The notes beneath the pieces were generated by a model. The model was not told the DNA's origin. It did no database searches and worked only from the letters and a program-made list of their open reading frames with translations. Positions 39,366-53,793 of a stretch of 64,000 bases of DNA are shown piece by piece; position 1 is the first letter of the stretch; each line of letters opens with the position of its first letter. Both the position numbers and the translations under genes were made by a program. The stretch covers positions 6,200 to 70,199 of the forward strand of contig CAZEAI010000001.1 of NCBI GenBank assembly GCA_964510105.1, read 5' to 3'. Source of the DNA: an uncultured bacterium. Lineage in GTDB: Bacteria > Latescibacterota > MWCZ01.

Positions 39366-39372
39366 GCCCGCC

Positions 39373-39918
39373 TCACTCACCGGTGGATCGCAGATCGGTG
39401 AGCATCTCCAGGAACCGTTCGTAGTGCTCGGCGAGCGATGCTTCGCCGCCGTCGGGCCAGCCGTACTGGAGGTTGAAGTACCCATCCCGTGGGGCTTCGA
39501 ACCCAACACGGAGTTCGGCGCCACTCAGTACGCACAGATAGGCGCTCGCCTGCTGGAATCTGGGATTCAGGTCAATCGCCACACGCGGCTTCAGGCGCTG
39601 GATCTGCTGCACGACGGGTTTGTGCGGTAGCCCCCACCGATTGACGGCGTTTGGTATCGCTGTGATGGGAAGTGGCGTATTCGGCGTGTCCGGCTCAGTG
39701 CCGCCGCTTCCGAGCCAGAGCGCATTGACAGGGCTGAACCACTTCTGGAAGCGCCCGGCGACCGCAGCTCCCTCCGCTACGTGCCGGATATCGGTCGGAA
39801 GGCATACGAGGGCGCGGCCACCACCGCGTAGCGCGGCACGCACTTCGACGGTGAAGAGATCGCGGCGACTCAGTCGCCATTTCGCCCAGACATGGCCGAC
39901 GGCATGCAGCACACTCAC
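39373..39918 (-). CDS. Hypothetical protein resembling the GT9 heptosyltransferase N-terminal half (DUF6913-like)
   Basis: 'VAIDLN..SAYLCVLSGAELRVGF..FNL'; translationally coupled to pheA. Confidence 0.55.
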   Translation of the reverse strand: MSVLHAVGHVWAKWRLSRRDLFTVEVRAALRGGGRALVCLPTDIRHVAEGAAVAGRFQKWFSPVNALWLGSGGTEPDTPNTPLPITAIPNAVNRWGLPHKPVVQQIQRLKPRVAIDLNPRFQQASAYLCVLSGAELRVGFEAPRDGYFNLQYGWPDGGEASLAEHYERFLEMLTDLRSTGE

Positions 39919-40784
39919 GACGCCCGGCCCACAGCGCGTTCCAACACGAGCGAGCCGTCGGCTACGGGACCCGTCCGATAGCAGCCGAGCACACGCAGGA
40001 ACGACGTGAGTTCGCCCATGTGATCCAGCGCCTTGCCGATGTTCTCCTCGTCAGCGTTTCCAGCGAAATCGAGGTAGAACATGTATTCCCACGGCGTCCC
40101 CAGCAGCGGGCGGGACTCGATCTTCTGGAGGTCGATGTCGCGCAACGCGAATACGCCCAACGCCTTGAACAGCATCCCCGGCTCATGGTGCAGAGCGAAT
40201 ACGATGGAGACCTTGTCTCCCGGCTCGGCGGGCGGGTTGCGCTCAATCGCGAGGAACCGCGTGTAATTCTCGTGATTGCTCTCGATGCCCGACGCAAGGA
40301 CCTCAAGCTCGTAGTCCGCGGCGGCCTGCGCGCTAGCGATCGCGGCCGTATCGCGAGCGCCAGACCCCTTGAGTTCTCGTACCGCGCCGGCGGTATCGTA
40401 CACAGGTGCCGCCTCCGCCCCTTCGATACCTCGGACGAAATCGCGGCACTGGGCGAGCGCCTGAGGATGGGAAATAACGCGTCGAACTTCCTCGATCTTC
40501 ACGCCCGCGTTAACGATAAGATGGTGGACGATTCGCAGCTTGATCTCGCCAACGATGTGTAGGTCGTGCTCCAGCAGCAGGTCGTAGTTCTCGTGGATGC
40601 TGCCGGCAAGGGAGTTCTCGATCGGGACCATCCCGGCGTCCGCGCGCCCGTCGGAGACCCGCTCGAATACCTCGGGAAAGGCCGGCGACGGCAACACCTC
40701 GACCTCGGAGCCGAAATACTCCCGCGCCGCCAACTCGCTATACGCCCCAAGCTCTCCCTGAAACGCCACCGTACGCGCTGACAT
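39915..40784 (-). CDS. pheA: Prephenate dehydratase
   Basis: 'VAFQGELGAYSE', 'PIENS', 'SHPQALAQC', 'NYTRF', ACT domain 'IESRP'. Confidence 0.95.
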   Translation of the reverse strand: MSARTVAFQGELGAYSELAAREYFGSEVEVLPSPAFPEVFERVSDGRADAGMVPIENSLAGSIHENYDLLLEHDLHIVGEIKLRIVHHLIVNAGVKIEEVRRVISHPQALAQCRDFVRGIEGAEAAPVYDTAGAVRELKGSGARDTAAIASAQAAADYELEVLASGIESNHENYTRFLAIERNPPAEPGDKVSIVFALHHEPGMLFKALGVFALRDIDLQKIESRPLLGTPWEYMFYLDFAGNADEENIGKALDHMGELTSFLRVLGCYRTGPVADGSLVLERAVGRAS

Positions 40785-41000
40785 GCACCCCCTCCAAGCA
40801 TCGACCGTCGCTTCAACGGACGCCCAACCGAACCCCGTGTCCAGCGGCCCATTTTATGGTAGCTCGCCTCCTCGAACATGTCCAGTGGGTGCGCCACCAG
40901 GTCAGAGCCGGTCGTCCAGCGGTTTGACGCCCACCCACCGGTGCGTAGCTTTCACGTGGACGCTGACCGGCCGATGCCAATGGAGCGCGCGGAATCATCC

Positions 41001-41645
41001 ATGAGAGTCGCTGGGAGCACACGGACGATCACAGCCGCTCTTGCGGCAACACTCGCTCTCGCGAACGCCTCCGGAGGCGTTGAGATAAGGTGGGCAGCGA
41101 CATCCGGCATCGGGTACCTGACAGAGATTCACAACCACGTCGATCCGTCGCCGCGCCTTGCCGCCGAGGCCACAACTCGTCTGACGAAGCGAGCGTCGCT
41201 CGGGCTCATGGGCGACTATTCCGTGTACCGTGCGGTCGCGCCGGGGAATTCCGGCTTGCAGTGGCGAGCCCTTGCTCTGGTGCACTGGCGCCCGACAAGC
41301 GGACCGCTGCTCGGCAGGATTGAGCCGTTCGGCCAGTTTGGCATCGGCGCCGGGTCAATGGGTTGGGACTCGCCGACAGCCAGCCAGCGGACACTCGGAC
41401 CGGCGGCACGCCTCGCCATCGGCGCGGATACGTGGATCGGCGGGACATATTCGGTCGTAACGATGCTCAGCCTCGAACGTCTCGACAGCGCGATCATAGA
41501 TTTGAAGCGGCGATACCCGACCATGTTCACGCTGAGCATCGGCGTCTCGATGGTAGCGCCACAGGGCGCGGCGCTTCTTTCAAGGCGCTCCGACAACCTG
41601 CGACAACGCTTCGGTGCGGCACACAGTCCGCGGATGGAACGATGA
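41001..41645 (+). CDS. Hypothetical exported protein (OMP beta-barrel-like)
   Basis: Signal peptide, 'EPFGQFGIGAG' beta strands; stop overlaps the nadE start (ATGA). Confidence 0.5.
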   Translation: MRVAGSTRTITAALAATLALANASGGVEIRWAATSGIGYLTEIHNHVDPSPRLAAEATTRLTKRASLGLMGDYSVYRAVAPGNSGLQWRALALVHWRPTSGPLLGRIEPFGQFGIGAGSMGWDSPTASQRTLGPAARLAIGADTWIGGTYSVVTMLSLERLDSAIIDLKRRYPTMFTLSIGVSMVAPQGAALLSRRSDNLRQRFGAAHSPRMER

Positions 41646-43372
41646 ACGATCTACGGCTTGCTCTGGGTCAGATCAACACCACCGTGGGCGACATCGCGGG
41701 CAACACGCGCACGATGCTCGACTGGATCGAACGCGCTCGCGGGGAAGACGCGGATGTCGTCGCATTCCCCGAGCTGGCGGTGATCGGGTATCCACCCGAG
41801 GACCTGCTCTATCGCCCGGACCTGCTGCGCCGGAATCTGGCAGCGCGAGATGAGATCGTCGCGGCGAGCAAAGGCATGGTCGTCATCTTCGGATTCGCCG
41901 ACGCGCCCGACGACATCTACAATGCCGCCGCCGTGGCCTGCGACGGATCTCTCGCCGGCGTGTACCACAAGGAATTCCTGCCGAACTACGGTGTGTTCGA
42001 CGAGAATCGCTATTTCCAGGCCGGCAACGCCCGGAGCGTATTCGCCGTCGACGGCGTCGTCATCGGCGTGAACATCTGCGAGGACATCTGGTATCCCGGC
42101 GGCCCGGCGGATCACCAGGCCCTCGTCGGCGGCGCGCACGTGATCGTCAACATCTCGGCCTCCCCCTACCATGCAGGGAAAATCGGCGCGCGCGACCGGA
42201 TGATCGCCACCAGGGCGGCGGATAACGACGCGATCGTAGCGTTGGTGAACCTGGTCGGCGGGCAGGACGAACTCGTGTTCGACGGCGGCAGCGTCATCTA
42301 CGATGAAGCGGGGCAGATCCGCGCCCGTGGCAGGCAGTTCGAGGAAGACCTCGTGGTCACCGACGTTTCCCTCGACGCCATATTCGGCTATCGCCTGCGC
42401 GATCCGAGGCGTCGGAAGGAGAAGTATTCCGCGACGCTCCGGGGTGAGGAAGTCCCACGTATCGAACTCGACCTCGCGCCGCGAAGCGAGCGTACCTCCG
42501 CGCCCTCCGGCGAACCCGAACGGCTCGATAGGCTGGACGAGATCTACCGCGCGCTCATGCTCGGCGTTCACGACTACGTTGGAAAGAACGACTTCGATTC
42601 GGTCGTCGTCGCTCTCTCGGGAGGGATCGACTCGGCGCTCACCGCCGCGATCGCGGTCGACGCCCTTGGATGCGATCGTGTGGTGGGGCTCACGATGCCC
42701 TCCCAGTTCAGCTCGGAGGAGACTCGCGGCGACGCGGGCAAGCTCGCCGAGAACCTCGGCATCCGCTTCATCACGCTGCCGATCCTCGACATCAACGAGC
42801 AGTACCTCGATAGCCTCGAAGACGAATTCGCCGGTACCGAGCCCGGCATCGCCGAAGAGAACATCCAGGCACGGATTCGAGGCAATCTGGTCATGGCGCT
42901 CTCGAACAAGTTTGGCTGGCTCGTGCTCACCACCGGCAACAAGAGCGAGATGTCGGTGGGCTACGCCACGCTCTACGGCGATATGGCGGGCGGATTCGCG
43001 GCGCTCAAGGACGTGTACAAGACCACCGTCTACGAGCTGTCGAACTGGCGGAACACGTGGGACGAGGGAGCGCCGATTCCTCCCACAACGATCGAGCGTC
43101 CGCCTTCGGCGGAGCTGCGGCCCGATCAGCGCGATGACGACAGCTTGCCGCCGTACGACATACTCGACCCCATCATCGAGGCGTACGTCGAGCGCGATGA
43201 AACCGTCGCGAGCATCGTGGCCCGCGGATACGACGAAGCGACGGTCCAGGACGTGATCCGCAAGGTCGATCGAGCGGAGTACAAGCGCCGGCAGGCTCCC
43301 CCGGGCATCAAGATCACGCCGCGCGCATTCGGCAAGGATCGCAGGCTACCGATCACGAACCGATCGCACTGA
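41642..43372 (+). CDS. nadE: Glutamine-dependent NAD+ synthetase
   Basis: Nitrilase domain 'FPEL..GYPPEDL', 'ICEDIW'; synthetase 'LSGGIDS', 'ENIQARIRG', 'TGNKSE', 'PPSAEL'. Confidence 0.97.
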   Translation: MNDLRLALGQINTTVGDIAGNTRTMLDWIERARGEDADVVAFPELAVIGYPPEDLLYRPDLLRRNLAARDEIVAASKGMVVIFGFADAPDDIYNAAAVACDGSLAGVYHKEFLPNYGVFDENRYFQAGNARSVFAVDGVVIGVNICEDIWYPGGPADHQALVGGAHVIVNISASPYHAGKIGARDRMIATRAADNDAIVALVNLVGGQDELVFDGGSVIYDEAGQIRARGRQFEEDLVVTDVSLDAIFGYRLRDPRRRKEKYSATLRGEEVPRIELDLAPRSERTSAPSGEPERLDRLDEIYRALMLGVHDYVGKNDFDSVVVALSGGIDSALTAAIAVDALGCDRVVGLTMPSQFSSEETRGDAGKLAENLGIRFITLPILDINEQYLDSLEDEFAGTEPGIAEENIQARIRGNLVMALSNKFGWLVLTTGNKSEMSVGYATLYGDMAGGFAALKDVYKTTVYELSNWRNTWDEGAPIPPTTIERPPSAELRPDQRDDDSLPPYDILDPIIEAYVERDETVASIVARGYDEATVQDVIRKVDRAEYKRRQAPPGIKITPRAFGKDRRLPITNRSH

Positions 43373-43396
43373 CACGGAACGAACCGAGGTACACCG

Positions 43397-43819
43397 ATGC
43401 ATGAGTGGGCCCTCGCCGAGGGCGTTGTCGAAACCGCAAGGCGCGTGGCCTCCGAGCGGGGGCTTCGATCCGTCACGGCGGTTCGTGTGCGAATGGGCGC
43501 GCTTCAGCAGATCGACGACGACATCTTTGGCGAGGCCATCGCGAAGTTCCAGAGCGAGTCCGACGAGGTGCGGAACGCAGAAGTCATCTTCGAGCAGGAA
43601 CCCATACGCGCCGAGTGCCGTCGCTGCGACACCTCGTGGGAAGTCGCAGGGGAGGAGCTTGAGGCGCTTGGCGAGGATGCGTCCGAGGCGATTCACTTCG
43701 TGCCGGAACTCGCGCGCGCCTATCTGCGATGCCCCGAATGCGGCAGCGCCGACTTCGCCGTGGAGCGAGGCCGTGGCGTCTGGATCGAGAGCGTGGAGGG
43801 CGTCGGCGATGAGGATTGA
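43397..43819 (+). CDS. hypA: Hydrogenase nickel metallochaperone HypA (Thermococcales-like)
   Basis: 'MHEWALA', CxxC 'CRRC' ... 'IHFVPEL..YLRCPECGS..GRGV'. Confidence 0.9.
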   Translation: MHEWALAEGVVETARRVASERGLRSVTAVRVRMGALQQIDDDIFGEAIAKFQSESDEVRNAEVIFEQEPIRAECRRCDTSWEVAGEELEALGEDASEAIHFVPELARAYLRCPECGSADFAVERGRGVWIESVEGVGDED

Positions 43820-44564
43820 CCGCGCCGGGGACCCTCGTATCGCCGTGATCGAGCGCAGACTGGAACGCGTCGAGCGAATCGTTGCGGTATCCAGTGGGAA
43901 GGGCGGCGTCGGCAAGAGCCTCGTAGCGGCGACGCTCGCGGCGCTGGTGTCGAAGTCGGGTCGGCGCGCCGGGCTCCTCGACTTCGACTTCGCCGGCTCA
44001 TCGGCGCACCTGGCGCTGGGCGCGGACGGGCTCTACCCGCACGAGGAGTACGGCATCGAACCACCGGTGTTCGCCGGGGTCCACTTCATGTCGCTCGTGC
44101 ACTTCATCGGCGAATCGGCGACGCCGCTGCGCGGCGAGGACGTCACGAACGTCATCACCGAGCTACTCGCTATCACGCAGTGGGGAGAACTTGACGTTCT
44201 CTTCGTGGACATGCCGCCGGGGATCGGCGACACTTCGCTGGACGCGATGCGCCTGCTCCCGCGCGCGGAACACCTGGTGATCACCACGGCATCACGCATG
44301 GCGGTGCCCGTAGTGACGCGCGTCCTGACGCTGCTCCAGGAGCAGGGGGTGCCGATCGCCGGGATCGTGGAGAACATGGCTCGCGATTCCGCCAGTTCGA
44401 TCTCGGATTCGCTCGGCGGCGACTCGGCGCGACTCGTCGGGAGTCTGCCCTTCGACGACCTACTCGAGGGAGCTGTGGGCGACGTTCCAGCGCTGCTGCA
44501 CACGAGCTTCGCCGACGCGCTGCGACCTGTGGCCGCCACACTCGGACTGTTGAGCGATGGCTGA
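43809..44564 (+). CDS. Mrp/MinD-family ATPase, ATPase-type HypB-like
   Basis: 'DPR', 'SGKGGVGKS', 'LLDFDF', 'TPLRG', 'DMPPG', 'VENM'; overlaps hypA; lacks the ApbC CxxC after ENM. Confidence 0.8.
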   Translation: MRIDRAGDPRIAVIERRLERVERIVAVSSGKGGVGKSLVAATLAALVSKSGRRAGLLDFDFAGSSAHLALGADGLYPHEEYGIEPPVFAGVHFMSLVHFIGESATPLRGEDVTNVITELLAITQWGELDVLFVDMPPGIGDTSLDAMRLLPRAEHLVITTASRMAVPVVTRVLTLLQEQGVPIAGIVENMARDSASSISDSLGGDSARLVGSLPFDDLLEGAVGDVPALLHTSFADALRPVAATLGLLSDG

Positions 44565-44588
44565 CCTCGTACGTCAGAGCGCGCGGGT

Positions 44589-46235
44589 GTGACCACCCCC
44601 ACCTCGGCATCCGACGGGGCCGCCGCTCATCCGCCCTCCACCCAGAGGCGGCTGTTCGGATACCTATCGCACCAATTTGCCGGAACCATGACGAGCCGGG
44701 CCATGGGCTTCGTGCGCGAGCTTGTCACGTCGTTCTACTTCGGCGTCAGCTCCGCGGCCGACGCTTTTGTCGTGGCTCTCACGATCCCAACACTCTTCCG
44801 GGACGTGCTCGGCGAGGACGTGGTCGAGCGCTCCTTCATGCCCGGTGTCCGCGAGGAACTCGCCCGGAAGAATTACGACCGCGCGTGGCGCTTGAGTTCG
44901 GCGTCACTGACGTGGATGATCCTCGGCATCACCGCAACGATGGCGCTGGTGTATCTCGCGGCGCCCTGGCTCGTGAATATCGTCGCGCAGGGCATCCATC
45001 AACGGCAAATCGACGAAGGCACGCTCGGCGATATCGTCCGGATGACGCGTCTGCTTGTGCCGTTTATCATGTTCATCGCGCTCGGAGCGTATCTCGGCGG
45101 CCTGCTCTACTACGGATACGACCTCCATCTGCCGTTCAGCCTGGCACCCGCGATGCTCAGCGTAGGCGTTATCGCCTCGCTTGTGCTGCTCACGGAGAGC
45201 ATCGGCGTGTATGCCTTGGCCGTCGGCTTCGTCGCGGGAGCGGCGCTCCAGCTCCTCGTGCAGGTGCCGTTTCTCTGGATACGGCGAGTACGCGAGACTC
45301 GTCCGCGGTACCGCCCGACGCTGATTCCGCCGAAGGGCACCGGCAGGCGCATATCGCGGGAAACTGCCTGGGTCACGCTGCAATCGGTCCTGACGAAGAC
45401 CACCGAGATCGTCGACCGTCGCGTCGCGTCGTTCCTCGCGACGGGCAGCATCAGCAGCCTCTGGTTCTCCGCGCGACTGGTGCAGCTACCTCTCGCCATC
45501 ATCGGTATAGCCATCGGCAGAGCTGTTTCGCCATACCTCTCGGAGAAGATCGCCGTCGGCGACCGCGCGGAATTCAGGAACGCGGTGCTCATCGGCTACC
45601 GATACAACCTGCTGCTCATCCTGCCGGTGACCGGACTGTGCATCGCCCTCGCAGAGCCAATCGTCAGGCTCATCTTCGAGCGTGGCGAATTCGGAGCGCA
45701 CGACACGGCCATGACGGCGCGCGCGTTCTGGTGCTACGCCACGGGGCTGCTGGGCATGTCGCTCTACTCGCTTGGGAGCCGCGTGTGTTCTACGCTGGGC
45801 CGAAATCGCGTCGCCACATTCACCGCCGCGATCGGTGGCGGCGTCAACATCTGGCTCAACTACGTGCTCTCCGCGACGGCGCTCCGACACGGTGGACTCG
45901 CGCTCGCGACGTCCATCGGCTTCACGATCAACTCTGCGCTGCTCTTCACGTGGCTTCACTTGCATCTGAGAGCGGATGCCGCGGGCTTCACCGCGCGCGA
46001 AGTGCTAGCACCGGCGGCGCGAGCAGCGCTCAATACTGCTGCCGCGACAGCGGTGGCATATGCCCTCCACGGGCAGCTCGCATCGACGGCATCAGATGGA
46101 TTCGTGTCGGCGCTAGTGACGGCGGGCTTGCCGCTGGCGGCCGGGCTCGGCGTCTACGCGCTGGTGTCCATTCTGAATCCGCTTCCGGAGGTTATGCCGG
46201 TCGTCAGGCGCCTGCGTGAGCTACTCCACCGTTGA
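44589..46235 (+). CDS. murJ: Lipid II flippase MurJ (MviN)
   Basis: 'SRAMGFVRE..FG..ADAF..IP', 'RLVQLPL', 'FERGEF', 'HGGLALATS'. Confidence 0.9.
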   Translation: MTTPTSASDGAAAHPPSTQRRLFGYLSHQFAGTMTSRAMGFVRELVTSFYFGVSSAADAFVVALTIPTLFRDVLGEDVVERSFMPGVREELARKNYDRAWRLSSASLTWMILGITATMALVYLAAPWLVNIVAQGIHQRQIDEGTLGDIVRMTRLLVPFIMFIALGAYLGGLLYYGYDLHLPFSLAPAMLSVGVIASLVLLTESIGVYALAVGFVAGAALQLLVQVPFLWIRRVRETRPRYRPTLIPPKGTGRRISRETAWVTLQSVLTKTTEIVDRRVASFLATGSISSLWFSARLVQLPLAIIGIAIGRAVSPYLSEKIAVGDRAEFRNAVLIGYRYNLLLILPVTGLCIALAEPIVRLIFERGEFGAHDTAMTARAFWCYATGLLGMSLYSLGSRVCSTLGRNRVATFTAAIGGGVNIWLNYVLSATALRHGGLALATSIGFTINSALLFTWLHLHLRADAAGFTAREVLAPAARAALNTAAATAVAYALHGQLASTASDGFVSALVTAGLPLAAGLGVYALVSILNPLPEVMPVVRRLRELLHR

Positions 46236-46284
46236 CTGTGAGACTCACGGGCGGTACGATCGAAGGTCGAGGAGGAGGATCATC

Positions 46285-48372
46285 GTGCGGCCACGTACGT
46301 ACCTGCTGACGGGCGGGGGCACCGGCGGACACGTCACGCCCGGCGTGGCCGTGGCCGGCGAGCTATCTCGTCGCGACCCGGATGCGCGCATCGTCTGGAT
46401 CGGCACACGCACCGGCAAGGAGGCGGAGATCGTGCCCCGGTACGGGTTCGAGCTTGCGTTCGTGCCGGCGCGCCAGTATGTCTTCCGCCGTCCGTGGCAC
46501 GCCATCCGGTTCGCAGTGACGCTCGGCATCGGCGTATTGAAGAGCATGTGGCTGCTGCTACGGATCCGTCCCGACATCGTCATCGGCATGGGTGGTTATG
46601 TCGCCGCTCCGACGGTATTCGCGAACCTCGCCCTGCGCCGCCTTCGCCTCTCCAACGCAGCCACGGTCATCCACGAACAGAACACCGCGCCGGGGCGACT
46701 GAACGCCGCAGTGGGGGATCTGGCCGATGTTGTGCTGGTGAGCTTCCCGTGTGCTCAGAGAGGATTCTCGCGGACCGCGTACGTCGGCTACCCTGTGCGC
46801 CCGGAGATTCGACCGCTCGACCGAGCCGAGGCGCGCGACAGGCTGGGCATTCAGCGCGATGCACGCCTCGTCTTCGCCGTTGGCGGATCGATGGGGGCGC
46901 GAACCATCAACCGCGCAATGATAGCAGCGCTACCGGCCCTGCATCGTGCAGGCTATGTAGGCGTGGTCCACGGCACCGGACGCAAGCTGACCGCGTACGA
47001 TCCTGTCTCCGACTGCCGCGAACGTCTCGCGGAGACCGGACTGACCGAGGAGGACCTCGACGGCTGGTATGAACCGCACGAGTTCATCGATGGGATGGCC
47101 GACTACTACGCCGCGGCGGATCTCGTGGTGGCTCGCGCCGGAGCCGGCACTGTTGCGGAGCTATGCGCGAGCGGACGGCCGTCGCTCCTCATACCGAAGT
47201 CGAACCTCTCAGGCGACCACCAGGTCATGAACGCGCTCGAACTGGTCCACGCGGGTGCGGCGGACGTTGTGTACGAAGACACCCGCACTGTCGACGGCGC
47301 GACCGAGGAGTTCGTGAGCGGCGACGAGCTTGCGAGCCGGATACTCGCCCTACTCGACGACACGAGCCGGATCTCCCGGATGGCGGCAGCCGCGGCGGCG
47401 CTCGCCACGCCGGATGCGGTAGCGGCAACGGCGGATATCGCGGAACGCATGGCAGCAGGCAACGGCTCGACCGACATCGCTGACCTGGGCCTCGCCGAAC
47501 GAGAGTCGAGAACAAGCCGGTACGCCGAGTTCGCCTGCCGATCCGGTGAGGGGCTGCGCGCACGCGCAGACCGGCTTGTGCAGGAGGCAGAGCAGCGCCT
47601 TACGACGCCGACCGGCGATGTGCGCGCACGCGAGGCGGAGCTTGCTGAACTCCTCTGCGCCGATGACGTTGTCAGGTATCTCCGGTATCGCGCGGTGGGC
47701 ATGCTGGCCAGCGACGCCTGGAGAGAGCGAAACGCCGGGGTGAAGCTCGCCGGTATCCTGCGGCTGCACGAGAGACTGCCATTGCTGGTACGGATGCTTA
47801 CCGACCGGACGCCCACCTCGTGGCTGAAGCGGAAGCTCGGCGCCGACTTCGTGCAGAACGGATTCATCCGGCGCAATATCACCGATTCCATCGCCAGGAT
47901 CGGCAAGTTCGACGAAGACGTGCGGGCCGCCCTCATCGCGGCGCTGGACGACCCGTACTTCGAGGTGCGGTCACACGCCGCACGCTCATGCCTGAAGCTC
48001 TGCGATCTCATCGGCGGTGACATCGAGATCGAGAAGAGCCTGGTCGAGAACAGTCGCGACCGGTCGTTCGAAGTGGTGCTGGAATCCGCCGCCGCGCTGG
48101 GAGGGTGCGCAGCGAGCGCCGCCGCCGTCGAATGTCTGTACGAACTGCTCAGCCACGATAGCTGGCGGATACGGGAGGCGGCACTCGGGGCACTGGACCT
48201 CGTGTACACGCGCGATCCCGCCCTCGTGGAGATCGACAGTCTGCGGGAACATCTCCGGGAGGTCATGGTCGTCAGCACAGGGTTTGCGCCGACGTTCGCG
48301 CTGAAACAGACCATCGGCCGGCTCGGCGCGCGAGTCGAGGCCGGACGGACGCGAGGCGGGGAGGGTCTGTAG
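46285..48372 (+). CDS. murG: MurG glycosyltransferase fused to C-terminal HEAT-repeat region
   Basis: GTG after GGAGGAGG; 'GGGTGGHVTPG', 'HEQN', 'GGSMGA', 'RAGAGTVAE', 'DHQVMNA'; tail with 'LDDPYFEVRSHAA', 'DRSFEVVLESAAALG', 'HDSWRIREAALGAL'. Confidence 0.88.
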   Translation: MRPRTYLLTGGGTGGHVTPGVAVAGELSRRDPDARIVWIGTRTGKEAEIVPRYGFELAFVPARQYVFRRPWHAIRFAVTLGIGVLKSMWLLLRIRPDIVIGMGGYVAAPTVFANLALRRLRLSNAATVIHEQNTAPGRLNAAVGDLADVVLVSFPCAQRGFSRTAYVGYPVRPEIRPLDRAEARDRLGIQRDARLVFAVGGSMGARTINRAMIAALPALHRAGYVGVVHGTGRKLTAYDPVSDCRERLAETGLTEEDLDGWYEPHEFIDGMADYYAAADLVVARAGAGTVAELCASGRPSLLIPKSNLSGDHQVMNALELVHAGAADVVYEDTRTVDGATEEFVSGDELASRILALLDDTSRISRMAAAAAALATPDAVAATADIAERMAAGNGSTDIADLGLAERESRTSRYAEFACRSGEGLRARADRLVQEAEQRLTTPTGDVRAREAELAELLCADDVVRYLRYRAVGMLASDAWRERNAGVKLAGILRLHERLPLLVRMLTDRTPTSWLKRKLGADFVQNGFIRRNITDSIARIGKFDEDVRAALIAALDDPYFEVRSHAARSCLKLCDLIGGDIEIEKSLVENSRDRSFEVVLESAAALGGCAASAAAVECLYELLSHDSWRIREAALGALDLVYTRDPALVEIDSLREHLREVMVVSTGFAPTFALKQTIGRLGARVEAGRTRGGEGL

Positions 48373-49509
48373 ATGTTCCACCTACTGGGTCAATACCTCG
48401 GCGCCATTGTCGACGCGGGTGTCCTGCCGGCTGAGCAGTACGAGCTGTTCGCCCGCCTGCTGGGATACATATCGACGCGGGCGATCGCGGCGTTGCTAAC
48501 ATCGTTCGTCGTAACGATGCTCGTCGGCGGACGGGCTATTCGATGGCTGCACCGCCATCACATGCGCGACCGCGTGAAGGAATTCGGCGCGCTCTCCGCG
48601 ACAGATAAGCGTGGCACTCCGACGATGGGCGGTATCGTCATCATAGCGGCCACGGTTTTGCCGACGCTTCTCTGGTGCGACCTCACGAATCGCTTTGTCC
48701 ACATCGCGCTGGCGGCCATCGTGTGGTTCGGCATCCTCGGCGCCATCGACGACTATCTGAAAATCAACCCGGTTCGCAGTCGTCGCGGCCTGAGGCCGCT
48801 GCACAAGCTCATCCTGCAGGGGCTGTTCGCGCTGATACTCGCGGCGATCTACCTCTCGCCGGAGACCTCGCCTGTACCGCCCGACATGGCCAGCGACTGG
48901 TTCGTGCCTTTCTACAAGCACGCGGTGTTCGACGACGTGGGCTGGTGGTATCTGCCGTACATCGTATTCGTCGTACTACTCATCTCGAACTCGGTGAATC
49001 TCACGGACGGGATGGACGGCCTCGCCATCATGCCGGCGAACTTCGCCGTGGTCGTCTACGGCATCGTCGCGTACGTCATCGGTAATGCAGTATTCGCGCG
49101 GTACCTGCAATTCGGATACGTCTCCGGCTCCGGAGAGCTACTGATCTTCTGCTCCGCGCTGTTCGGGGCAGGCATGGGGTTCCTGTGGTACAACGCGTAT
49201 CCCGCGCAGGTCATCATGGGAGACACCGGCTCCATGGCGCTTGGAGGCGTGCTGGCGACGCTGGCGATCATGCTGAAGCAGGAGGTGCTCTTCGTGATCG
49301 TCGGCGGGGTCTTCATCGCCGAAGCACTCAGCTCGCTCATCCAGGAGAAGATCGGCGAGAACTTCCTCGGGCGGCGGATCTTCTACCGGGCGCCGCTGCA
49401 CCATCAGATGGAGTATCTCGGTCTCGCCGAGACGAAAGTCGTCATCCGAATGTGGATCATCGCCGGGATACTGGCGATGGTGGGGCTGGCATCGCTCAAG
49501 CTTCGGTGA
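48373..49509 (+). CDS. mraY: Phospho-N-acetylmuramoyl-pentapeptide transferase
   Basis: 'KRGTPTMGG', 'GAIDDYLK', 'NSVNLTDGMDGL', 'YNAYPAQVIMGDTGS', 'APLHH'. Confidence 0.95.
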   Translation: MFHLLGQYLGAIVDAGVLPAEQYELFARLLGYISTRAIAALLTSFVVTMLVGGRAIRWLHRHHMRDRVKEFGALSATDKRGTPTMGGIVIIAATVLPTLLWCDLTNRFVHIALAAIVWFGILGAIDDYLKINPVRSRRGLRPLHKLILQGLFALILAAIYLSPETSPVPPDMASDWFVPFYKHAVFDDVGWWYLPYIVFVVLLISNSVNLTDGMDGLAIMPANFAVVVYGIVAYVIGNAVFARYLQFGYVSGSGELLIFCSALFGAGMGFLWYNAYPAQVIMGDTGSMALGGVLATLAIMLKQEVLFVIVGGVFIAEALSSLIQEKIGENFLGRRIFYRAPLHHQMEYLGLAETKVVIRMWIIAGILAMVGLASLKLR

Positions 49510-49518
49510 TGCGCGGCT

Positions 49519-50652
49519 TCACTCGTCGACGGGTCCGCCGCTCGCATCCACAATCGCGCGGACGCGCTCGACGCTTTCCGCGCTGCGTTGCGTGATGTCA
49601 TGTCGCGACAACCGTATGGACTCCCAACCATCCGGTGTGCCCTCCGCGGTCGGCGCATCCACAAGGACCGTGCGAGACATGGTGCGCGACGCGATATCCA
49701 CCTGAATGCTCGCCCGTCGGCAGAAGAGCGCGTAGTCCGCCAGGTGGTAGGCGTTCGTTCCTCGTATGTGATACGCCCGCTCCGGACGAAGACTGGCCTC
49801 GGTGAGGTGACCGTAAAACGCCTGCTCATCGTCGTCGCCAACGACGAGATCGTTCACCTCGTGCGCGGCCTCGAATCGCTGCCATGTGGTGGGAAGCAGG
49901 ACGAAACGAGGGCGCTTCCGCCCATCGATCGGCGCCGGACGCTTCTGCAACTCGTCGATGTGGATGCGGACGTAGTCCTCCAACGCTCGAGGATGTCGCG
50001 GCTGATCCGGGAATATCTCTATGCGCGGGATGACATCGGCGTGCCAGGCGCGCGCGTAATGCGTGATGGTGCCCGCGTCGCCCCCGAACGCCCGACCGAA
50101 ATAGAACGCGACGTATCCCGGCGTCTGCCAGTCGCGCACCATCTTGACGGGTATTCGGTACCACCGCTCCAGTCTCGCTATCTCGAAGTCGCGCGCGGTC
50201 GGCACCACGCCGACAAGCACGTCATCCCGCTGGGATGGTGGCAACGGATCGTCGGAGAACAGGTCATCGAAGGTCGGCGCGGCGGTGAGCCGCCAGAGCG
50301 TCGTCCGGGACCAGATCAGGCGGCGACCACGATCGGGAACGAGTGGCCGGGCCAGCCGAATGGGAGGATCGAAGGCGATGGCGTAATAGTGTTCTTCCGC
50401 CCGTGGGTGGTCGGTCTCGCCCGGGAACAGATCGACACGCCGCACAATCTCGACGTTGCGCACACGAGCGTAGTAGCGAACTCCGCGCTGGCTCTCTCCG
50501 AACGACCGCGGCAGGTAGAAGGCGATCCAGTTCGCGGCGATCTCCGGTGGGCCGTGCTTTACCGGGAGCCGGTACCAATGCCGATCCCGCACGATGCCCC
50601 AGTCGCGCCGGGACGGCACGAGGACGACTATGGCGGGTTCATGCGGCTGCAT
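49519..50652 (-). CDS. Tandem EVE/PUA-like domains + degenerate DUF559 (Vsr-like) domain
   Basis: Internal duplication aa ~7-132 / ~144-270 (WYRLP/WYRIP, IAFY/VAFY, YYAR/HYAR, FP..HPRA); C-terminal 'EQAFY..ERAYHI..ADYA..GWESIRL'. Confidence 0.65.
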   Translation of the reverse strand: MQPHEPAIVVLVPSRRDWGIVRDRHWYRLPVKHGPPEIAANWIAFYLPRSFGESQRGVRYYARVRNVEIVRRVDLFPGETDHPRAEEHYYAIAFDPPIRLARPLVPDRGRRLIWSRTTLWRLTAAPTFDDLFSDDPLPPSQRDDVLVGVVPTARDFEIARLERWYRIPVKMVRDWQTPGYVAFYFGRAFGGDAGTITHYARAWHADVIPRIEIFPDQPRHPRALEDYVRIHIDELQKRPAPIDGRKRPRFVLLPTTWQRFEAAHEVNDLVVGDDDEQAFYGHLTEASLRPERAYHIRGTNAYHLADYALFCRRASIQVDIASRTMSRTVLVDAPTAEGTPDGWESIRLSRHDITQRSAESVERVRAIVDASGGPVDE

Positions 50653-50682
50653 TCCATCCCCTGCGGAATACCGGACTGCCGG

Positions 50683-51831
50683 CTAGATGTAGTTGAGGCC
50701 GGGTAAGAGCCACGGAAGTGGTAGTGCCAGGCGCCAGGCGGCAACAACGTCGGCGAGGCCCTCCAACGTCTCCGCGGCATCCGCGAAGAGCACGGCGTTG
50801 AGCTGTTCCAGATCGGCGATACGCAGCACCTCACCGCCCAGCCGGAGTTCCCACGTATCCGCATCACGACACGCGACCGACATGGCGTTGGCGCATTCCG
50901 CGCCACAGCGCTCCGTAAGCCAGGGCCGGTATCGATGAAGGATGTCCTCATTCAGAATCGACATCCGATGGCCGGCGAGCAGCCCGGGCGCCATCGAGGC
51001 GCCAAGGTCGCGAAGTCGCGCGAGCATCTCCGTATCCTGCGGCAACAGCGGCCCGGCGAGCGTATGAACGTCGTATTGCGCCGCGAGCTTCAGCATCGCG
51101 TCCGCCGCCGCCCATCGTGCACCGGAGAACTCCACGACCTGCGCTACGTGCGGATTGTCGGTGCCGCCGAATTGTAGCACAACCGTCGCGACTACTTCGC
51201 CTCCCGCCTCCACGAGCCAGCAGCGTTTCACCCCGGCGGGCTCCGGCATCGCGGGATGAGCCAGCCGACACACGCTCAGGAAGCCCGCCCAGTCCGACGG
51301 TGATCGAGCGTATCGGACGGGTTCGCGCTGGTGGACGGCGATGAGGTCCGGAATGTCGGTGTCCGCCGCCGGGCGCACGGAGACTGAGTCACCCCCGGCC
51401 CTTGCGTTGGGGACATCGAGGGAGAATCTCACCTCGTGCCCGCCGATTGCGCATCCGGCGCGCTGGTAGAGCCCACGCTGGCCGGAAATCAGCATGACAT
51501 CCGCCCCGCTCTCACGCGCTGTGGCGAACGAGTCCTCCAGCAAGACGGTTGCCAGACCACGTCCACGGTGCGACTCGTACGTGCAGACCGCGCCAAGCGA
51601 AGCAACCGAGAGCGTGTTCCCCAGCACGACCACGTCTCGCGTCTGGAACGTGATCGCGGAAACGATCTCCCCGTCATCCACCATCACGCGGATGCTTTCC
51701 AGGTTGCTCTCACACAGCAGCGTGGGGAACTCGTCGCACATCGATGTACCCACGCCCGACCGGAACACAGTGTCCTCGACTCGTTTCAGGCTAACGAGTT
51801 CGTCCGAGCGGCATGCACGTGGTCCATCCAT
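50683..51831 (-). CDS. GNAT family acetyltransferase (Eis-like)
   Basis: 'LGAVCTYESHRGRGLATVLL', 'ISGQRGLYQRAG'. Confidence 0.85.
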   Translation of the reverse strand: MDGPRACRSDELVSLKRVEDTVFRSGVGTSMCDEFPTLLCESNLESIRVMVDDGEIVSAITFQTRDVVVLGNTLSVASLGAVCTYESHRGRGLATVLLEDSFATARESGADVMLISGQRGLYQRAGCAIGGHEVRFSLDVPNARAGGDSVSVRPAADTDIPDLIAVHQREPVRYARSPSDWAGFLSVCRLAHPAMPEPAGVKRCWLVEAGGEVVATVVLQFGGTDNPHVAQVVEFSGARWAAADAMLKLAAQYDVHTLAGPLLPQDTEMLARLRDLGASMAPGLLAGHRMSILNEDILHRYRPWLTERCGAECANAMSVACRDADTWELRLGGEVLRIADLEQLNAVLFADAAETLEGLADVVAAWRLALPLPWLLPGLNYI

Positions 51832-51930
51832 CTCGCCAATCCTGTCGGTACAGTGTCGTACAACGCTCGCGCTCCGCGCGACCTGGGAACCAGATCAATG
51901 TATGGCGTCGCGCCCGGCCCAACCAAGGGA

Positions 51931-52130
51931 GGAGTCGCCCCTTTGCGTGTACACGCGAGCCGGGGTAGTATTCTATGGTCCGGATGGAAGGCCGCGTCGG
52001 CCGATGGGTATCGCACGGGCGAGCCGATTCCGGCCCGGCGCGAAGCCATGTCATCGAGGTGGTGCGGTGCGCTCCACGCTTCTGCGCGCCAGTGCCGCCG
52101 GACGAACGGACTCGTGAAAGGGACGACTCC
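51931..52130. other. 200-bp element bounded by a 14-bp inverted repeat; candidate structured leader
   Basis: GGAGTCGCCCCTTT (51931-51944) / AAAGGGACGACTCC (52117-52130), one mismatch; inner GTCCGG/CCGGAC; TTGCGT-17-TAGTAT promoter-like motif inside. Confidence 0.35.
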
Positions 52131-52134
52131 AACG

Positions 52135-53793
52135 ATGTCTGAGCAGGCTACACCGTTCGCGCTTCGTGGGTGGGGGATCCGCGTATGGGACTCTCCCGAG
52201 CGGTTCGAGACGGCGGTTGATCGAGCACTCGTCGAAGCCGACAGACACGGTGTGAACATGCTCGATCTGCACGACGGGAGCGTGCCTCCCGGCATCGGCT
52301 GGGTCGACCTGTTCGCTCAGTATCGCCAGGTGCAGGCCCTGCGCAACCTCGATTCGCTTACGTACTCCGGGCAGGCGCTTGGAAGCAGCGAGCGCGCCGA
52401 GCATCAAGAGCGTTTCCGAGATATGTGCCGAAGAATCAAAGCGCAGGGGTTGCGGATACACGTCTGGTATCACGTGCTGCGCGATCTTCCGGAGGAATGG
52501 ATCGAAGCGGAGCCGACGCTCTCAAAGCTGGAGGGTCGGCGTCTCTGGCAGGTTCTCGGCGGAATGGTCGAGGACTTTTTCTCGGCGGTGCCAGAAGTGG
52601 ACGCGCTCACGGTTACAGCCCAGCAGGCTCTGGCGGAGACCGTACGCGACGCGAGCAGCGTCACGTACGGCGAGCGGCTGCGCGCCACCTATCAGTGCTT
52701 GTATGAGGCGTGCAAGAGGCACCGCAAGCAACTGATCGTGAGAGAGGTCGGCGCAACCCGGCAGGAGAAGGACGCTTTCATCTACGCCGTCGGACCGCTG
52801 CCGCCCGACATCACCATCATGGTGAAGGACGTCCAGGGCGACTGGTATCACCTGAATGCCCCGCTCAACCCGGTTCTCCACCAGCTCAAGGGCAAGAACA
52901 TCATCGTGGAGAGCGACCTGTACGGCGAGCATTGGGGCCACCTGCAGGTGCCGCTCTGCCGGCCGGGGCAGCTTCACGCGCTGATTCGTTCGTGGCTACA
53001 CCTGCCAATTGTCGGCGCGATCGGCAGGATCAAGGTCGTTCAGCAGACCGATTCGCCGCGCATCCACGTCTTCGATACGCCGAACGCCGCAAACGTCGCG
53101 ACGTTCTACCACCTGCTTCGCGAGCCCATGCCGGAATCCGACCTGGATACCGCCAACCTCGACGCATTCGACCTCCGGATCTGGCTGAACTGGCTCCACA
53201 CGCAGTACGGCGAGGATGCCAGCCCCTACGTGATCGCCGCGCTGGACCGCACTCCGCGCATCTGTCAGCGGGTCTTCTATCTCGGTGGCGCCTACTTTCA
53301 GAATCGAAGTCACCTCCCCTCGCCGAGCGTGTTCGAGCGGAGCCTCTGGCCCACGTTCACGCGCCAGGCGAAGAGCCTCGGCACGGACGTCCTTCGGTGG
53401 GAGAAGGAGGTAGCCCTCAGGCTCGTGCGGCAGTCGCTGCGCGATATCGAAATCGCGGGACCGACGCTCGACAGCGAAGGCTATGACGGGCTGCTCCAGA
53501 GCTTCGAGCAGGCGCGGGACGTGGCACTGGCCTATCGCGCGTTCATCGACCTGTGCATTGGGCGGACGAAGCCGGAGCAGATGCCGGTCGCCGTGCGCGA
53601 GGCGGAGGAACTCGCGACGCGTGTGGAGGCCGCGCGGGGCGAAGAGTTCTTCGGTTACCTCCCTGAACGGCTGCGCCAGCTCTCCAAGTACATGGAAGAC
53701 ATCACCCGGGGGACGGAGCCCGCGGAGGCCGCCCCCCCCGCCGAGCCGTACGACGACGGCCCTGTGAACATCGACGGCTTGGCGCCGCAGTAG
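52135..53793 (+). CDS. Hypothetical protein (possible TIM-barrel glycoside-hydrolase-like)
   Basis: 552 aa; 'FFSAVPEVDALTV', 'LIVRE', 'IMVKDVQGDW', 'IVESDLYGEHWG'. Confidence 0.6.
   Translation: MSEQATPFALRGWGIRVWDSPERFETAVDRALVEADRHGVNMLDLHDGSVPPGIGWVDLFAQYRQVQALRNLDSLTYSGQALGSSERAEHQERFRDMCRRIKAQGLRIHVWYHVLRDLPEEWIEAEPTLSKLEGRRLWQVLGGMVEDFFSAVPEVDALTVTAQQALAETVRDASSVTYGERLRATYQCLYEACKRHRKQLIVREVGATRQEKDAFIYAVGPLPPDITIMVKDVQGDWYHLNAPLNPVLHQLKGKNIIVESDLYGEHWGHLQVPLCRPGQLHALIRSWLHLPIVGAIGRIKVVQQTDSPRIHVFDTPNAANVATFYHLLREPMPESDLDTANLDAFDLRIWLNWLHTQYGEDASPYVIAALDRTPRICQRVFYLGGAYFQNRSHLPSPSVFERSLWPTFTRQAKSLGTDVLRWEKEVALRLVRQSLRDIEIAGPTLDSEGYDGLLQSFEQARDVALAYRAFIDLCIGRTKPEQMPVAVREAEELATRVEAARGEEFFGYLPERLRQLSKYMEDITRGTEPAEAAPPAEPYDDGPVNIDGLAPQ

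Follow-up and report, generated by a model that had tools for sequence, protein, structure and literature searches.

A murG-HEAT and mraY module with murJ, located outside the dcw cluster of a Latescibacterota genome

Results

The Locus

The DNA analyzed here (the window) is a stretch of 64,000 nucleotides from an uncultured bacterium of the phylum Latescibacterota (assembly GCA_964510105.1, here genome G000; contig CAZEAI010000001.1, here C1, positions 6200-70199 of the forward strand), and the element under study is a run of three genes for the membrane steps of lipid II synthesis, murJ, murG and mraY, in which murG is extended by a C-terminal domain of HEAT repeats. In window positions, the genes and domains lie as follows:

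44589..46235, plus strand: murJ, lipid II flippase, 548 aa from the GTG at 44589; the true start is possibly further downstream
46285..48372, plus strand: murG-HEAT fusion gene, 695 aa from the GTG at 46285, ribosome-binding site GGAGGAGGA
46297..47454, plus strand: catalytic GT-B (GT28) region of MurG, residues 28-413 in the numbering of the 718-aa frame, PF03033 and PF04101
47515..48357, plus strand: conserved C-terminal HEAT-repeat domain, residues ~434-714, PF13646 (HEAT_2)
48373..49509, plus strand: mraY, lipid I synthase of the HEAT-linked subfamily, 378 aa

MurJ scored 281.2 bits against TIGR01695 (cut-off 235.55; Pfam MurJ E = 1.7e-75) and MraY 305.8 bits against TIGR00445 (cut-off 192.05; PF00953 E = 4e-32), the signature MraY_sig1 also being found in the latter. 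The longest murG frame extends from a GTG at 46216 to 48372 and encodes 718 aa; the likely start is the GTG at 46285, because it is preceded by the putative ribosome-binding site GGAGGAGGA and because a 96%-identical homolog (P0001) is 695 aa long. From this start the murJ stop and murG are separated by a gap of 49 bp and do not overlap, while the ATG of mraY (48373) directly abuts the TAG of murG (48370-48372). The open reading frames (ORFs) and their coordinates thus confirm what an earlier note on this DNA had described, namely three consecutive genes with mraY right after the murG stop. The absence of murC, murD, murE, murF, ftsW and ftsI from the surroundings, also claimed there, held as well, since family searches of the whole genome placed no Mur ligase, FtsW/RodA or penicillin-binding protein (PBP) transpeptidase gene within the window, and all such matches were located on contigs C15, C85, C92, C3 or C58 or at C1:184 kb.

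Copy Number and the Depleted dcw Cluster

The assembly comprises 5.4 Mb in 232 contigs and is 98.18% complete with 0.53% contamination. Whole-genome family searches returned one mraY, one murG and one murJ over the cut-offs, and a second MOP-type, MurJ-like match reached 35.2 bits only. In the canonical cluster of genes for division and the cell wall (dcw) the order is mraY-murD-ftsW-murG, and murJ is unlinked, as in Escherichia coli. The dcw cluster of G000 was found on the minus strand of contig C15 and consists of rsmH, ftsI, murE, murF, ftsW, murC, ftsQ, ftsA and ftsZ, thereby missing exactly mraY, murD and murG. There is no room for mraY or murG in this cluster, because the ORF ends of murF and ftsW, as well as those of ftsW and murC, overlap by 4 bp. 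The murD gene stands alone at C1:~184186-185376 (L021), ~130 kb from the module.

Five more genomes carrying the module (G001-G005) were examined in the same way; G001 is an Acidobacteriota record and G002 a record labeled 'Deltaproteobacteria' with a fused frame of 1229 aa. The MraY and MurG-HEAT of the module were the sole full-length matches in all five, and their dcw clusters read murF-murD-ftsW-murC in G001 and G002 and murF-ftsW-murC in G003-G005, mraY and murG being gone from each. A dcw cluster without mraY and murG was hence present in 6/6 module genomes examined. Together, these observations support the conclusion that the three genes of the window are the primary and only machinery of the organism for the membrane steps of lipid II synthesis, and that this machinery lies outside the dcw cluster.

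The earlier note had considered both a second, dedicated lipid-II-like pathway and a reorganized primary pathway, and had proposed a search of the genome for other copies and for a dcw cluster. A specialized pathway beside a canonical one is now barely credible: nothing speaks for it but the position away from the dcw cluster and the deviant motifs described below, whereas no further mraY, murG or murJ of G000 came near the cut-offs, neither mraY nor murG had a second copy in the other five genomes, and the dcw cluster itself is devoid of both genes. The search supported reorganization of the primary pathway, the C15 cluster lacking precisely the genes mraY, murD and murG.

G000 also encodes three FtsZ proteins over the TIGR00065 cut-off (C15:3801-5129, C18:18469-19569 and C115:1320-2561; 407, 377, and 395 bits). 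Identity to the FtsZ of the dcw cluster is 72% and 67% for the two additional copies, which lie on contigs of equal G+C; since the genome has just one copy each of the cluster's FtsA, FtsQ, FtsW, FtsI and Mur ligases, the additional FtsZ copies look like real paralogs and not like contamination.

The MurG-HEAT Protein

The most unusual feature of the locus, which the earlier note did not contain, is the HEAT domain on MurG. An ordinary MurG has ~360 aa; that of the window has ~700 aa and is made up of a GT28 enzyme (PF03033, 90.5 bits; PF04101, 93 bits) fused to a conserved C-terminal HEAT-repeat domain of 290 aa (PF13646, 35.9 bits versus a gathering score of 27.7). The AlphaFold model of the full-length protein reached a mean predicted local distance difference test score (pLDDT) of 91.1 and a predicted template modeling score (pTM) of 0.88, with an all-helical HEAT part, and the HEAT domain modeled alone had a pLDDT of 93.1. 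Its invariant residues fall within W..RN.GVK, GFIRRN and DPYFEVR, and the motif F.P.F.LK is strongly conserved.

The best structural matches of the HEAT domain were alphaRep and HEAT solenoids (Foldseek E-values of 3.8e-6 to 2.9e-4), among them the alphaRep 7p0h_A (VIA Z 19.3, root-mean-square deviation 3.6, 217 residues aligned) and YibA (1oyz_A, Z 15.5). Foldseek and VIA returned solely designed or generic solenoids, with no enzyme fold and no specific relative bearing a partner, and a protein atlas search with the domain led only to clusters that were either generic HEAT or hypothetical (scores 0.94-0.95), recognition staying below the mark. A HEAT profile run against 1.84 billion representatives matched 1820 proteins at E<=1e-30, a number that is not the family size, as the top of the list is taken up by giant multi-HEAT proteins, each matched in many stretches. 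Among the 150 matches listed, 56 were judged by eye to be single-stretch and near full-length, 21 of them in proteins of 633-781 aa, five in proteins of 1219-1333 aa and 30 in sequences of 230-507 aa, which may or may not be whole proteins. As modeled, the HEAT domain appears to be a protein-docking fold without an enzyme signature, and the motifs W..RN.GVK and F.P.F.LK belong to the MurG-HEAT family.

Sequence Motifs and Catalytic Residues

Residue positions were derived from alignments with the E. coli K-12 proteins, and the checked residues of MraY, MurG and MurJ (in the case of MurJ, R18, R24, D39, R52 and R270, essential in E. coli) are those that we take to be catalytic or essential. The equivalents of MraY D115, D116, D195, D198, D267 and H325 are kept in the window and in 59/59 HEAT-linked MraYs, and H326 is kept in 55/59. 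The third histidine of the loop, H327, is a glutamine in the window and a histidine in only 13/59 HEAT-linked MraYs (T in 12, N in 10, S in nine and Q in seven), and E329 is replaced by Q in 45/59, in contrast to the full loop motif HHH[FY]E, which was present in all 28 dcw-type MraYs and is replaced by HHQME in the window. In MurG, 39 residues of the E. coli enzyme were identical in 31/31 aligned HEAT-fused MurGs, including H18, R163, S191, R260, E268 and Q288. All five MurJ equivalents listed above are present in the window.

Two deviant motifs had been singled out in the earlier note, 'APLHHQME' in MraY (residues 340-347) and 'LGED' in MurJ (residues 74-77). Both are indeed present, but they are typical of HEAT-linked relatives and not special to this genome: LGED aligns with the E. 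coli 'AEG' with its Glu retained, and LGED or LGEE was found in most of the aligned murJ genes adjoining murG-HEAT. Judged from these alignments, HHQME is ordinary for the HEAT-linked MraY clade, and neither motif affects a residue checked as catalytic.

The loop could nevertheless be read as a sign of new specificity, with the change of HHH to HHx and of E to Q adapting the module to a lipid-linked precursor that is chemically different in its stem peptide or sugar. The contrast between the two MraY groups at these positions would fit this explanation, as would the score of the window's MurG against TIGR01133 (233.4 bits), which falls below the NCBIfam equivalog cut-off of 250.25, like those of the MurG-HEAT proteins from the five other genomes (204.9-240.4 bits). 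We regard it as very unlikely, given that the aspartates and first histidine of MraY and the E. coli-invariant residues of MurG are retained, that G000 has ordinary MurC, MurE (516.5 bits with the diaminopimelate-type model NF001124) and MurF, that the lipid II users FtsW/FtsI and RodA/PBP2 (the latter pair on C85) are present, and that the genome holds no other mraY or murG for standard lipid II.

The Module Across Many Phyla

All of the 120 best homologs of the 718-aa protein combined GT28 and HEAT domains, and 25 of them (~1200 aa) contained a MurJ domain too, that is, they are MurJ-MurG-HEAT fusions. For the gene neighborhoods, 80 loci (L023-L102) from a scan of one genome per species and 20 from the phylum of the window, 100 in total (L023-L122), were searched by local tblastn with the window's proteins. 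A HEAT match was found in 66/100 loci, 59 of which have at least 1200 nt downstream, and in 58 of these 59 mraY follows on the same strand within 700 nt. An adjacent murJ was found in 20/66, located upstream of murG in 11, between GT28 and HEAT in six and after mraY in three; in one locus (L071), a single ORF of 1292 aa encodes GT28, MurJ and HEAT in this order. Conservation of the neighborhood, which the earlier note had proposed to check, therefore applies to HEAT and mraY and much less to the linkage of murJ.

The records carrying the module are labeled Acidobacteriota (including Aminicenantes), Thermodesulfobacteriota (Syntrophobacterales), Myxococcota, Gemmatimonadota, Latescibacterota, Fermentibacterota and Sumerlaeota, and a Zixibacteria metagenome-assembled genome was also among the relatives of the 718-aa protein. 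There is at least one cultured carrier, Desulfacinum hydrothermale, with a protein of 718 aa (P0043). In a 151-genome sample of the phylum of G001, ~21 genomes had a strong HEAT match (E<=1e-23) over most of the profile, and many of these matches lie in frames of 1070-1275 aa. Since the order of HEAT and mraY recurs in several phyla, it is not a lineage-specific rearrangement, which the earlier note had allowed for.

Two further gene arrangements were seen among these loci. In a Sumerlaeota record (L094, 9986-13333), an ORF of 1115 aa with GT28 at residues 6-351 and HEAT at ~955-1033 is followed by mraY and murF; the ~550 residues between its GT28 and HEAT parts, where other lineages have MurJ, gave no Pfam match at E<=1e-5. 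Furthermore, a 364-aa protein with a VWA_2 domain is encoded directly 3' of mraY in two module loci (L026, 13175-14269; L040, 13182-14276).

Both States Within the Phylum of the Window

In a sample of 121 genomes of the window's own phylum, the HEAT domain was present in 3/4 genomes of family f1, 1/1 of f2, 40/41 of f12 and 2/2 of f14, and in 0/73 genomes of the other ten families. Twelve loci from six HEAT-free families (among f3-f7 and f9-f11) showed the canonical order murF-mraY-ftsW-murG-murC. The triplet of murJ, murG-HEAT and mraY was also found in a genome of the same family as G000 (G009) and in another of the same order (G015), and in view of these two the gene order is more than chance.

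Family f14 has a third arrangement. In G107 (L118, 6781-9067), a free-standing HEAT protein of 390 aa is encoded directly before an mraY of the HEAT clade, with two L,D-transpeptidase genes upstream of it, and in G112 a HEAT frame of 396 aa lies just upstream of mraY. Both genomes have a canonical murG elsewhere (310.7 and 296.8 bits), in the order ftsW-murG-murC (L135/L136). HEAT hence remains beside mraY in all three of its forms, as a fusion with MurG, as a fusion with MurJ and as a free protein, and f14 is an intermediate architecture.

In most dcw-type loci of the phylum (L103-L114), murD is absent between mraY and ftsW, as it is from the cluster of G000, and it seems that murD left the dcw cluster earlier than mraY and murG.

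Families f8 (G012, G033, and G043) and f13 (G061 and G062) yielded no MraY over the cut-off in complete genomes of 4-6.5 Mb, and the HEAT domain was found in 0/29 and 0/13 of their sampled genomes, respectively. Their loci (L123-L127) contain a divergent MraY-like gene of ~360 aa, which scored 115-125 bits versus the cut-off of 192 and is 27-32% identical to the MraY of the window; it could represent the enzyme in a third state, after strong divergence, or else another kind of GT4 transferase.

Phylogeny of MraY and MurG

The MraY tree was computed from 73 rows, 16 near-duplicates having been dropped from 89, by a quick IQ-TREE search under LG+C20. The 54 HEAT-linked MraYs made up one side of a branch with a support of 100 in the Shimodaira-Hasegawa-like approximate likelihood ratio test (SH-aLRT) and a stem of 0.58, and the 12 dcw-type MraYs of the window's phylum formed a separate group (support 93). 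A neighboring HEAT match, and not the MraY sequence, decided whether a row was labeled HEAT-linked; by hand, this label was changed for four loci (L070, L075, L077, and L081), as the genome-scan alignment covers their HEAT region although the HEAT-only query had missed it. A tree of the MurG GT domain with 71 rows, from which near-duplicates, fragments and two long-branch Bacillota rows had been dropped, gave the same split for 54 HEAT-linked MurGs (SH-aLRT 100, stem 0.64), with subclades congruent with those of MraY. In an approximately unbiased (AU) test, forcing the 21 own-phylum MraYs together versus 28 rows of other phyla, a group named after the tree had been seen, was rejected (delta lnL 122.3, p-AU 9.6e-28).

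The HEAT-linked copies of MraY, and likewise those of MurG, make up a single clade in these trees, separate from the dcw-type copies of the window's own phylum. The separate clades and the AU rejection together indicate that the enzymes of the module are not simply derived from the phylum's own dcw copies. According to the earlier note, sole copies that branch with canonical orthologs would have made the arrangement a mere rearrangement; the copies are the only ones, yet the trees place them away from the phylum's canonical copies of dcw type.

The arrangement might be a neutral or regulatory variant of gene order without physical coupling, in which HEAT acts only within MurG itself, for example on membrane association, stability or autoregulation. 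The full-length model is in keeping with this, since it places HEAT in a fixed pose on the GT-B enzyme, and most of the invariant HEAT residues (DPYFEVR and GFIRRN) look like the consensus of the repeat, so that their role may be structural. A purely intramolecular role is, however, hard to fit with a HEAT domain that is also found behind MurJ, or free beside mraY without MurG, and MraY and MurG have co-diverged as congruent clades, which speaks against a neutral variant. Our estimate for this explanation is low.

Neighboring Genes

Two co-directional genes precede murJ and are given as context only, both identified by family match:

41363-43372, plus strand: nadE, upstream
43401-44564, plus strand: Mrp/ApbC-type P-loop ATPase gene, upstream

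Both were considered as conserved parts of the module and rejected, as Mrp was found in 0/100 related loci and NadE gave one distant match (L059). A scan of positions 40500-51000 for promoters and terminators detected three promoter-like sites, versus 1.5 +/- 1.2 in shuffled sequences, and two terminator-like sites, versus 3.8 +/- 2.0, and so did not set the limits of the operon.

Convergent on mraY lies an ORF of 377 aa (49519-50652, minus strand), followed by one of 785 aa (51436-53793, plus strand), neither of which has a Pfam or NCBIfam match. The 377-aa ORF (66% identity) and a neighboring Eis-like GNAT gene are kept beside mraY only in G020, a genome of the same genus. On the other side of the module, positions 36489-39524 (minus strand) encode a DinG-type helicase of 1011 aa that carries a DEDD exonuclease domain at its N-terminus (NF005981, 629.6 bits, under the cut-off of 789).

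Discussion

The locus in the window is one unfused form of a widespread and apparently undescribed module of HEAT-linked MraY and MurG, in part with MurJ, that replaces dcw genes. We lean, with some reservation, towards the reading that this is the primary lipid II pathway, organized as a conserved module in place of the corresponding dcw positions, and that the HEAT domain docks MurG, and MurJ where it is fused, to MraY. MraY makes lipid I, MurG converts it to lipid II and MurJ flips the product, and the cytoplasmic HEAT solenoid would serve as a docking adaptor that tethers MurG, and in the fusions MurJ as well, to MraY on its cytoplasmic side. Lipid I could then pass to MurG, and lipid II onward to MurJ, inside one complex, and the abutting or overlapping genes might favor matched synthesis of both proteins. 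As a unit, the module has probably passed from one phylum to another, displacing the dcw-encoded mraY and murG.

The placement of the domain offers a rationale for docking. Both termini of MraY are periplasmic according to the published structure, and MraY would therefore be hard to fuse to a cytoplasmic domain. The HEAT domain is always C-terminal on a protein that is cytoplasmic or ends in the cytoplasm, directly before mraY, so that docking of MurG or MurJ onto MraY is the simplest model. Prediction of a complex of HEAT with MraY gave a score of 0.52 versus 0.00 for the best control, with runs agreeing in at least 90% of contacts and a partner pLDDT of at least 83, and its verdict was weak support: 58 of 80 solved complexes and two of 110 mismatched pairs came up to the mark, and the range up to 0.60, which holds seven of the 80 solved complexes and both passing mismatches, is more often wrong than right unless the pair is likely beforehand.

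The HEAT domain could instead scaffold other partners, such as the cytoplasmic Mur ligases, MreB/FtsA or the elongasome or divisome, and thereby offset the lost co-transcription with the dcw cluster, adjacency to mraY then reflecting shared regulation only. The solenoid is of a generic protein-binding kind and carries no signal that points to a particular partner, MurG of other bacteria has been reported to scaffold Mur ligases (PMC10214165; PMC6420597), and the weak outcome of the complex prediction is also compatible with such partners. On the other hand, HEAT lies directly before mraY in nearly all loci that could be assessed, whether fused to MurG, fused to MurJ or, as in f14, standing alone, and no Mur ligase or cytoskeletal gene was conserved beside it in the loci examined. 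We consider this alternative unlikely, albeit less so than the others discussed above.

Returning to the docking of MurG and MurJ onto MraY by HEAT, a number of points weigh against it and against the spread of the module as a cassette. Because the loci were gathered by similarity to MurG-HEAT and are kin, counts such as 58/59 describe a family and are not independent trials; the lone exception (L061) has MurG-HEAT without mraY downstream. An adjacent murJ was not found in 46/66 loci (E<=1e-6, with the window's MurJ as query), and G020 of the same genus has fucose isomerase and GT1 genes before murG-HEAT in place of murJ. The MurG of the window scores below its equivalog cut-off, and the pTM of 0.88, with HEAT in a defined pose on MurG, means that the domain could act within the molecule. 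The proposed binding of HEAT to MraY has a weak complex score, which came without a reported interface. The trees were quick searches with SH-aLRT support only, the group for the AU test was chosen post hoc, and the dcw-type sample was narrow, consisting of the own phylum, Bacillota and one Nitrospirota, plus E. coli for MurG. Horizontal spread and ancient paralogy with differential loss are both compatible with the trees. The most specific form of the proposal, in which HEAT is the physical adaptor of a hard-wired line of MraY, MurG and MurJ, and in which the cassette moves between phyla and displaces the dcw-encoded mraY and murG, is put forward tentatively, as an idea that we would not yet call probable.

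Antibiotics have major targets in the membrane steps of peptidoglycan synthesis, and the hand-over from MraY to MurG and on to the flippase is still debated. A widespread natural architecture that links the three proteins by a dedicated, putative adaptor domain, sometimes in one polypeptide, is a ready system for testing complex formation and for structural work, and it provides independent support from genomes for the view that MurJ acts right after MurG. It also shows that mraY and murG have gone from the highly conserved dcw cluster to a separate module, in genomes labeled as several different phyla. If the proposal is true, the MurJ-MurG and MurG-MurJ fusions would be Rosetta-stone evidence that MurJ acts directly on the product of MurG, and the precursors could be handed over by tethering rather than by free diffusion. 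For the window, the more modest meaning is that of an ordinary essential pathway in an unusual arrangement, and not of a new pathway.

Comparison With Known Systems

In full-text searches of the literature, no paper that deals with HEAT repeats on MurG or with fusions of MurJ and MurG turned up among the hits listed. With HEAT-like proteins such as the alphaRep designs, E. coli YibA (1oyz) and the phycocyanin lyase CpcE/F (5n3u), the domain of the window shares the alpha-solenoid fold; none of them stands out as a specific relative, W..RN.GVK and F.P.F.LK belong to the MurG-HEAT family, and likeness of fold does not amount to shared function.

Compared with MraY, MurG and MurJ of E. coli, the proteins of the window belong to the same enzyme families and carry out the same reactions, MraY and MurJ passing the equivalog cut-offs and the key residues being conserved. 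They differ in that murJ, murG and mraY follow one another in this order outside the dcw cluster, that MurG carries a HEAT domain of 290 aa and scores below the cut-off, and that the MraY loop has HHQ and not HHH. The E. coli enzymes are separate proteins, and the passage of the precursor between them has been attributed to affinity gradients (PMC9046198).

A parallel is provided by the Mur chimeras of Shirakawa et al. (2023), which include MurE-MurF, MurG-MurC, MurC-MurB, MurC-Ddl, MurD-FtsW and MraY-MurG (PMC10214165). The principle is common to both, in that cell wall enzymes which are fused or fixed in order are taken as evidence for complexes. In the main text of that study MurJ occurs once, in a figure legend, and the word 'HEAT' never (PMC10214165), and to the combinations described there the module of the window would add a putative non-enzymatic adaptor as well as the flippase.

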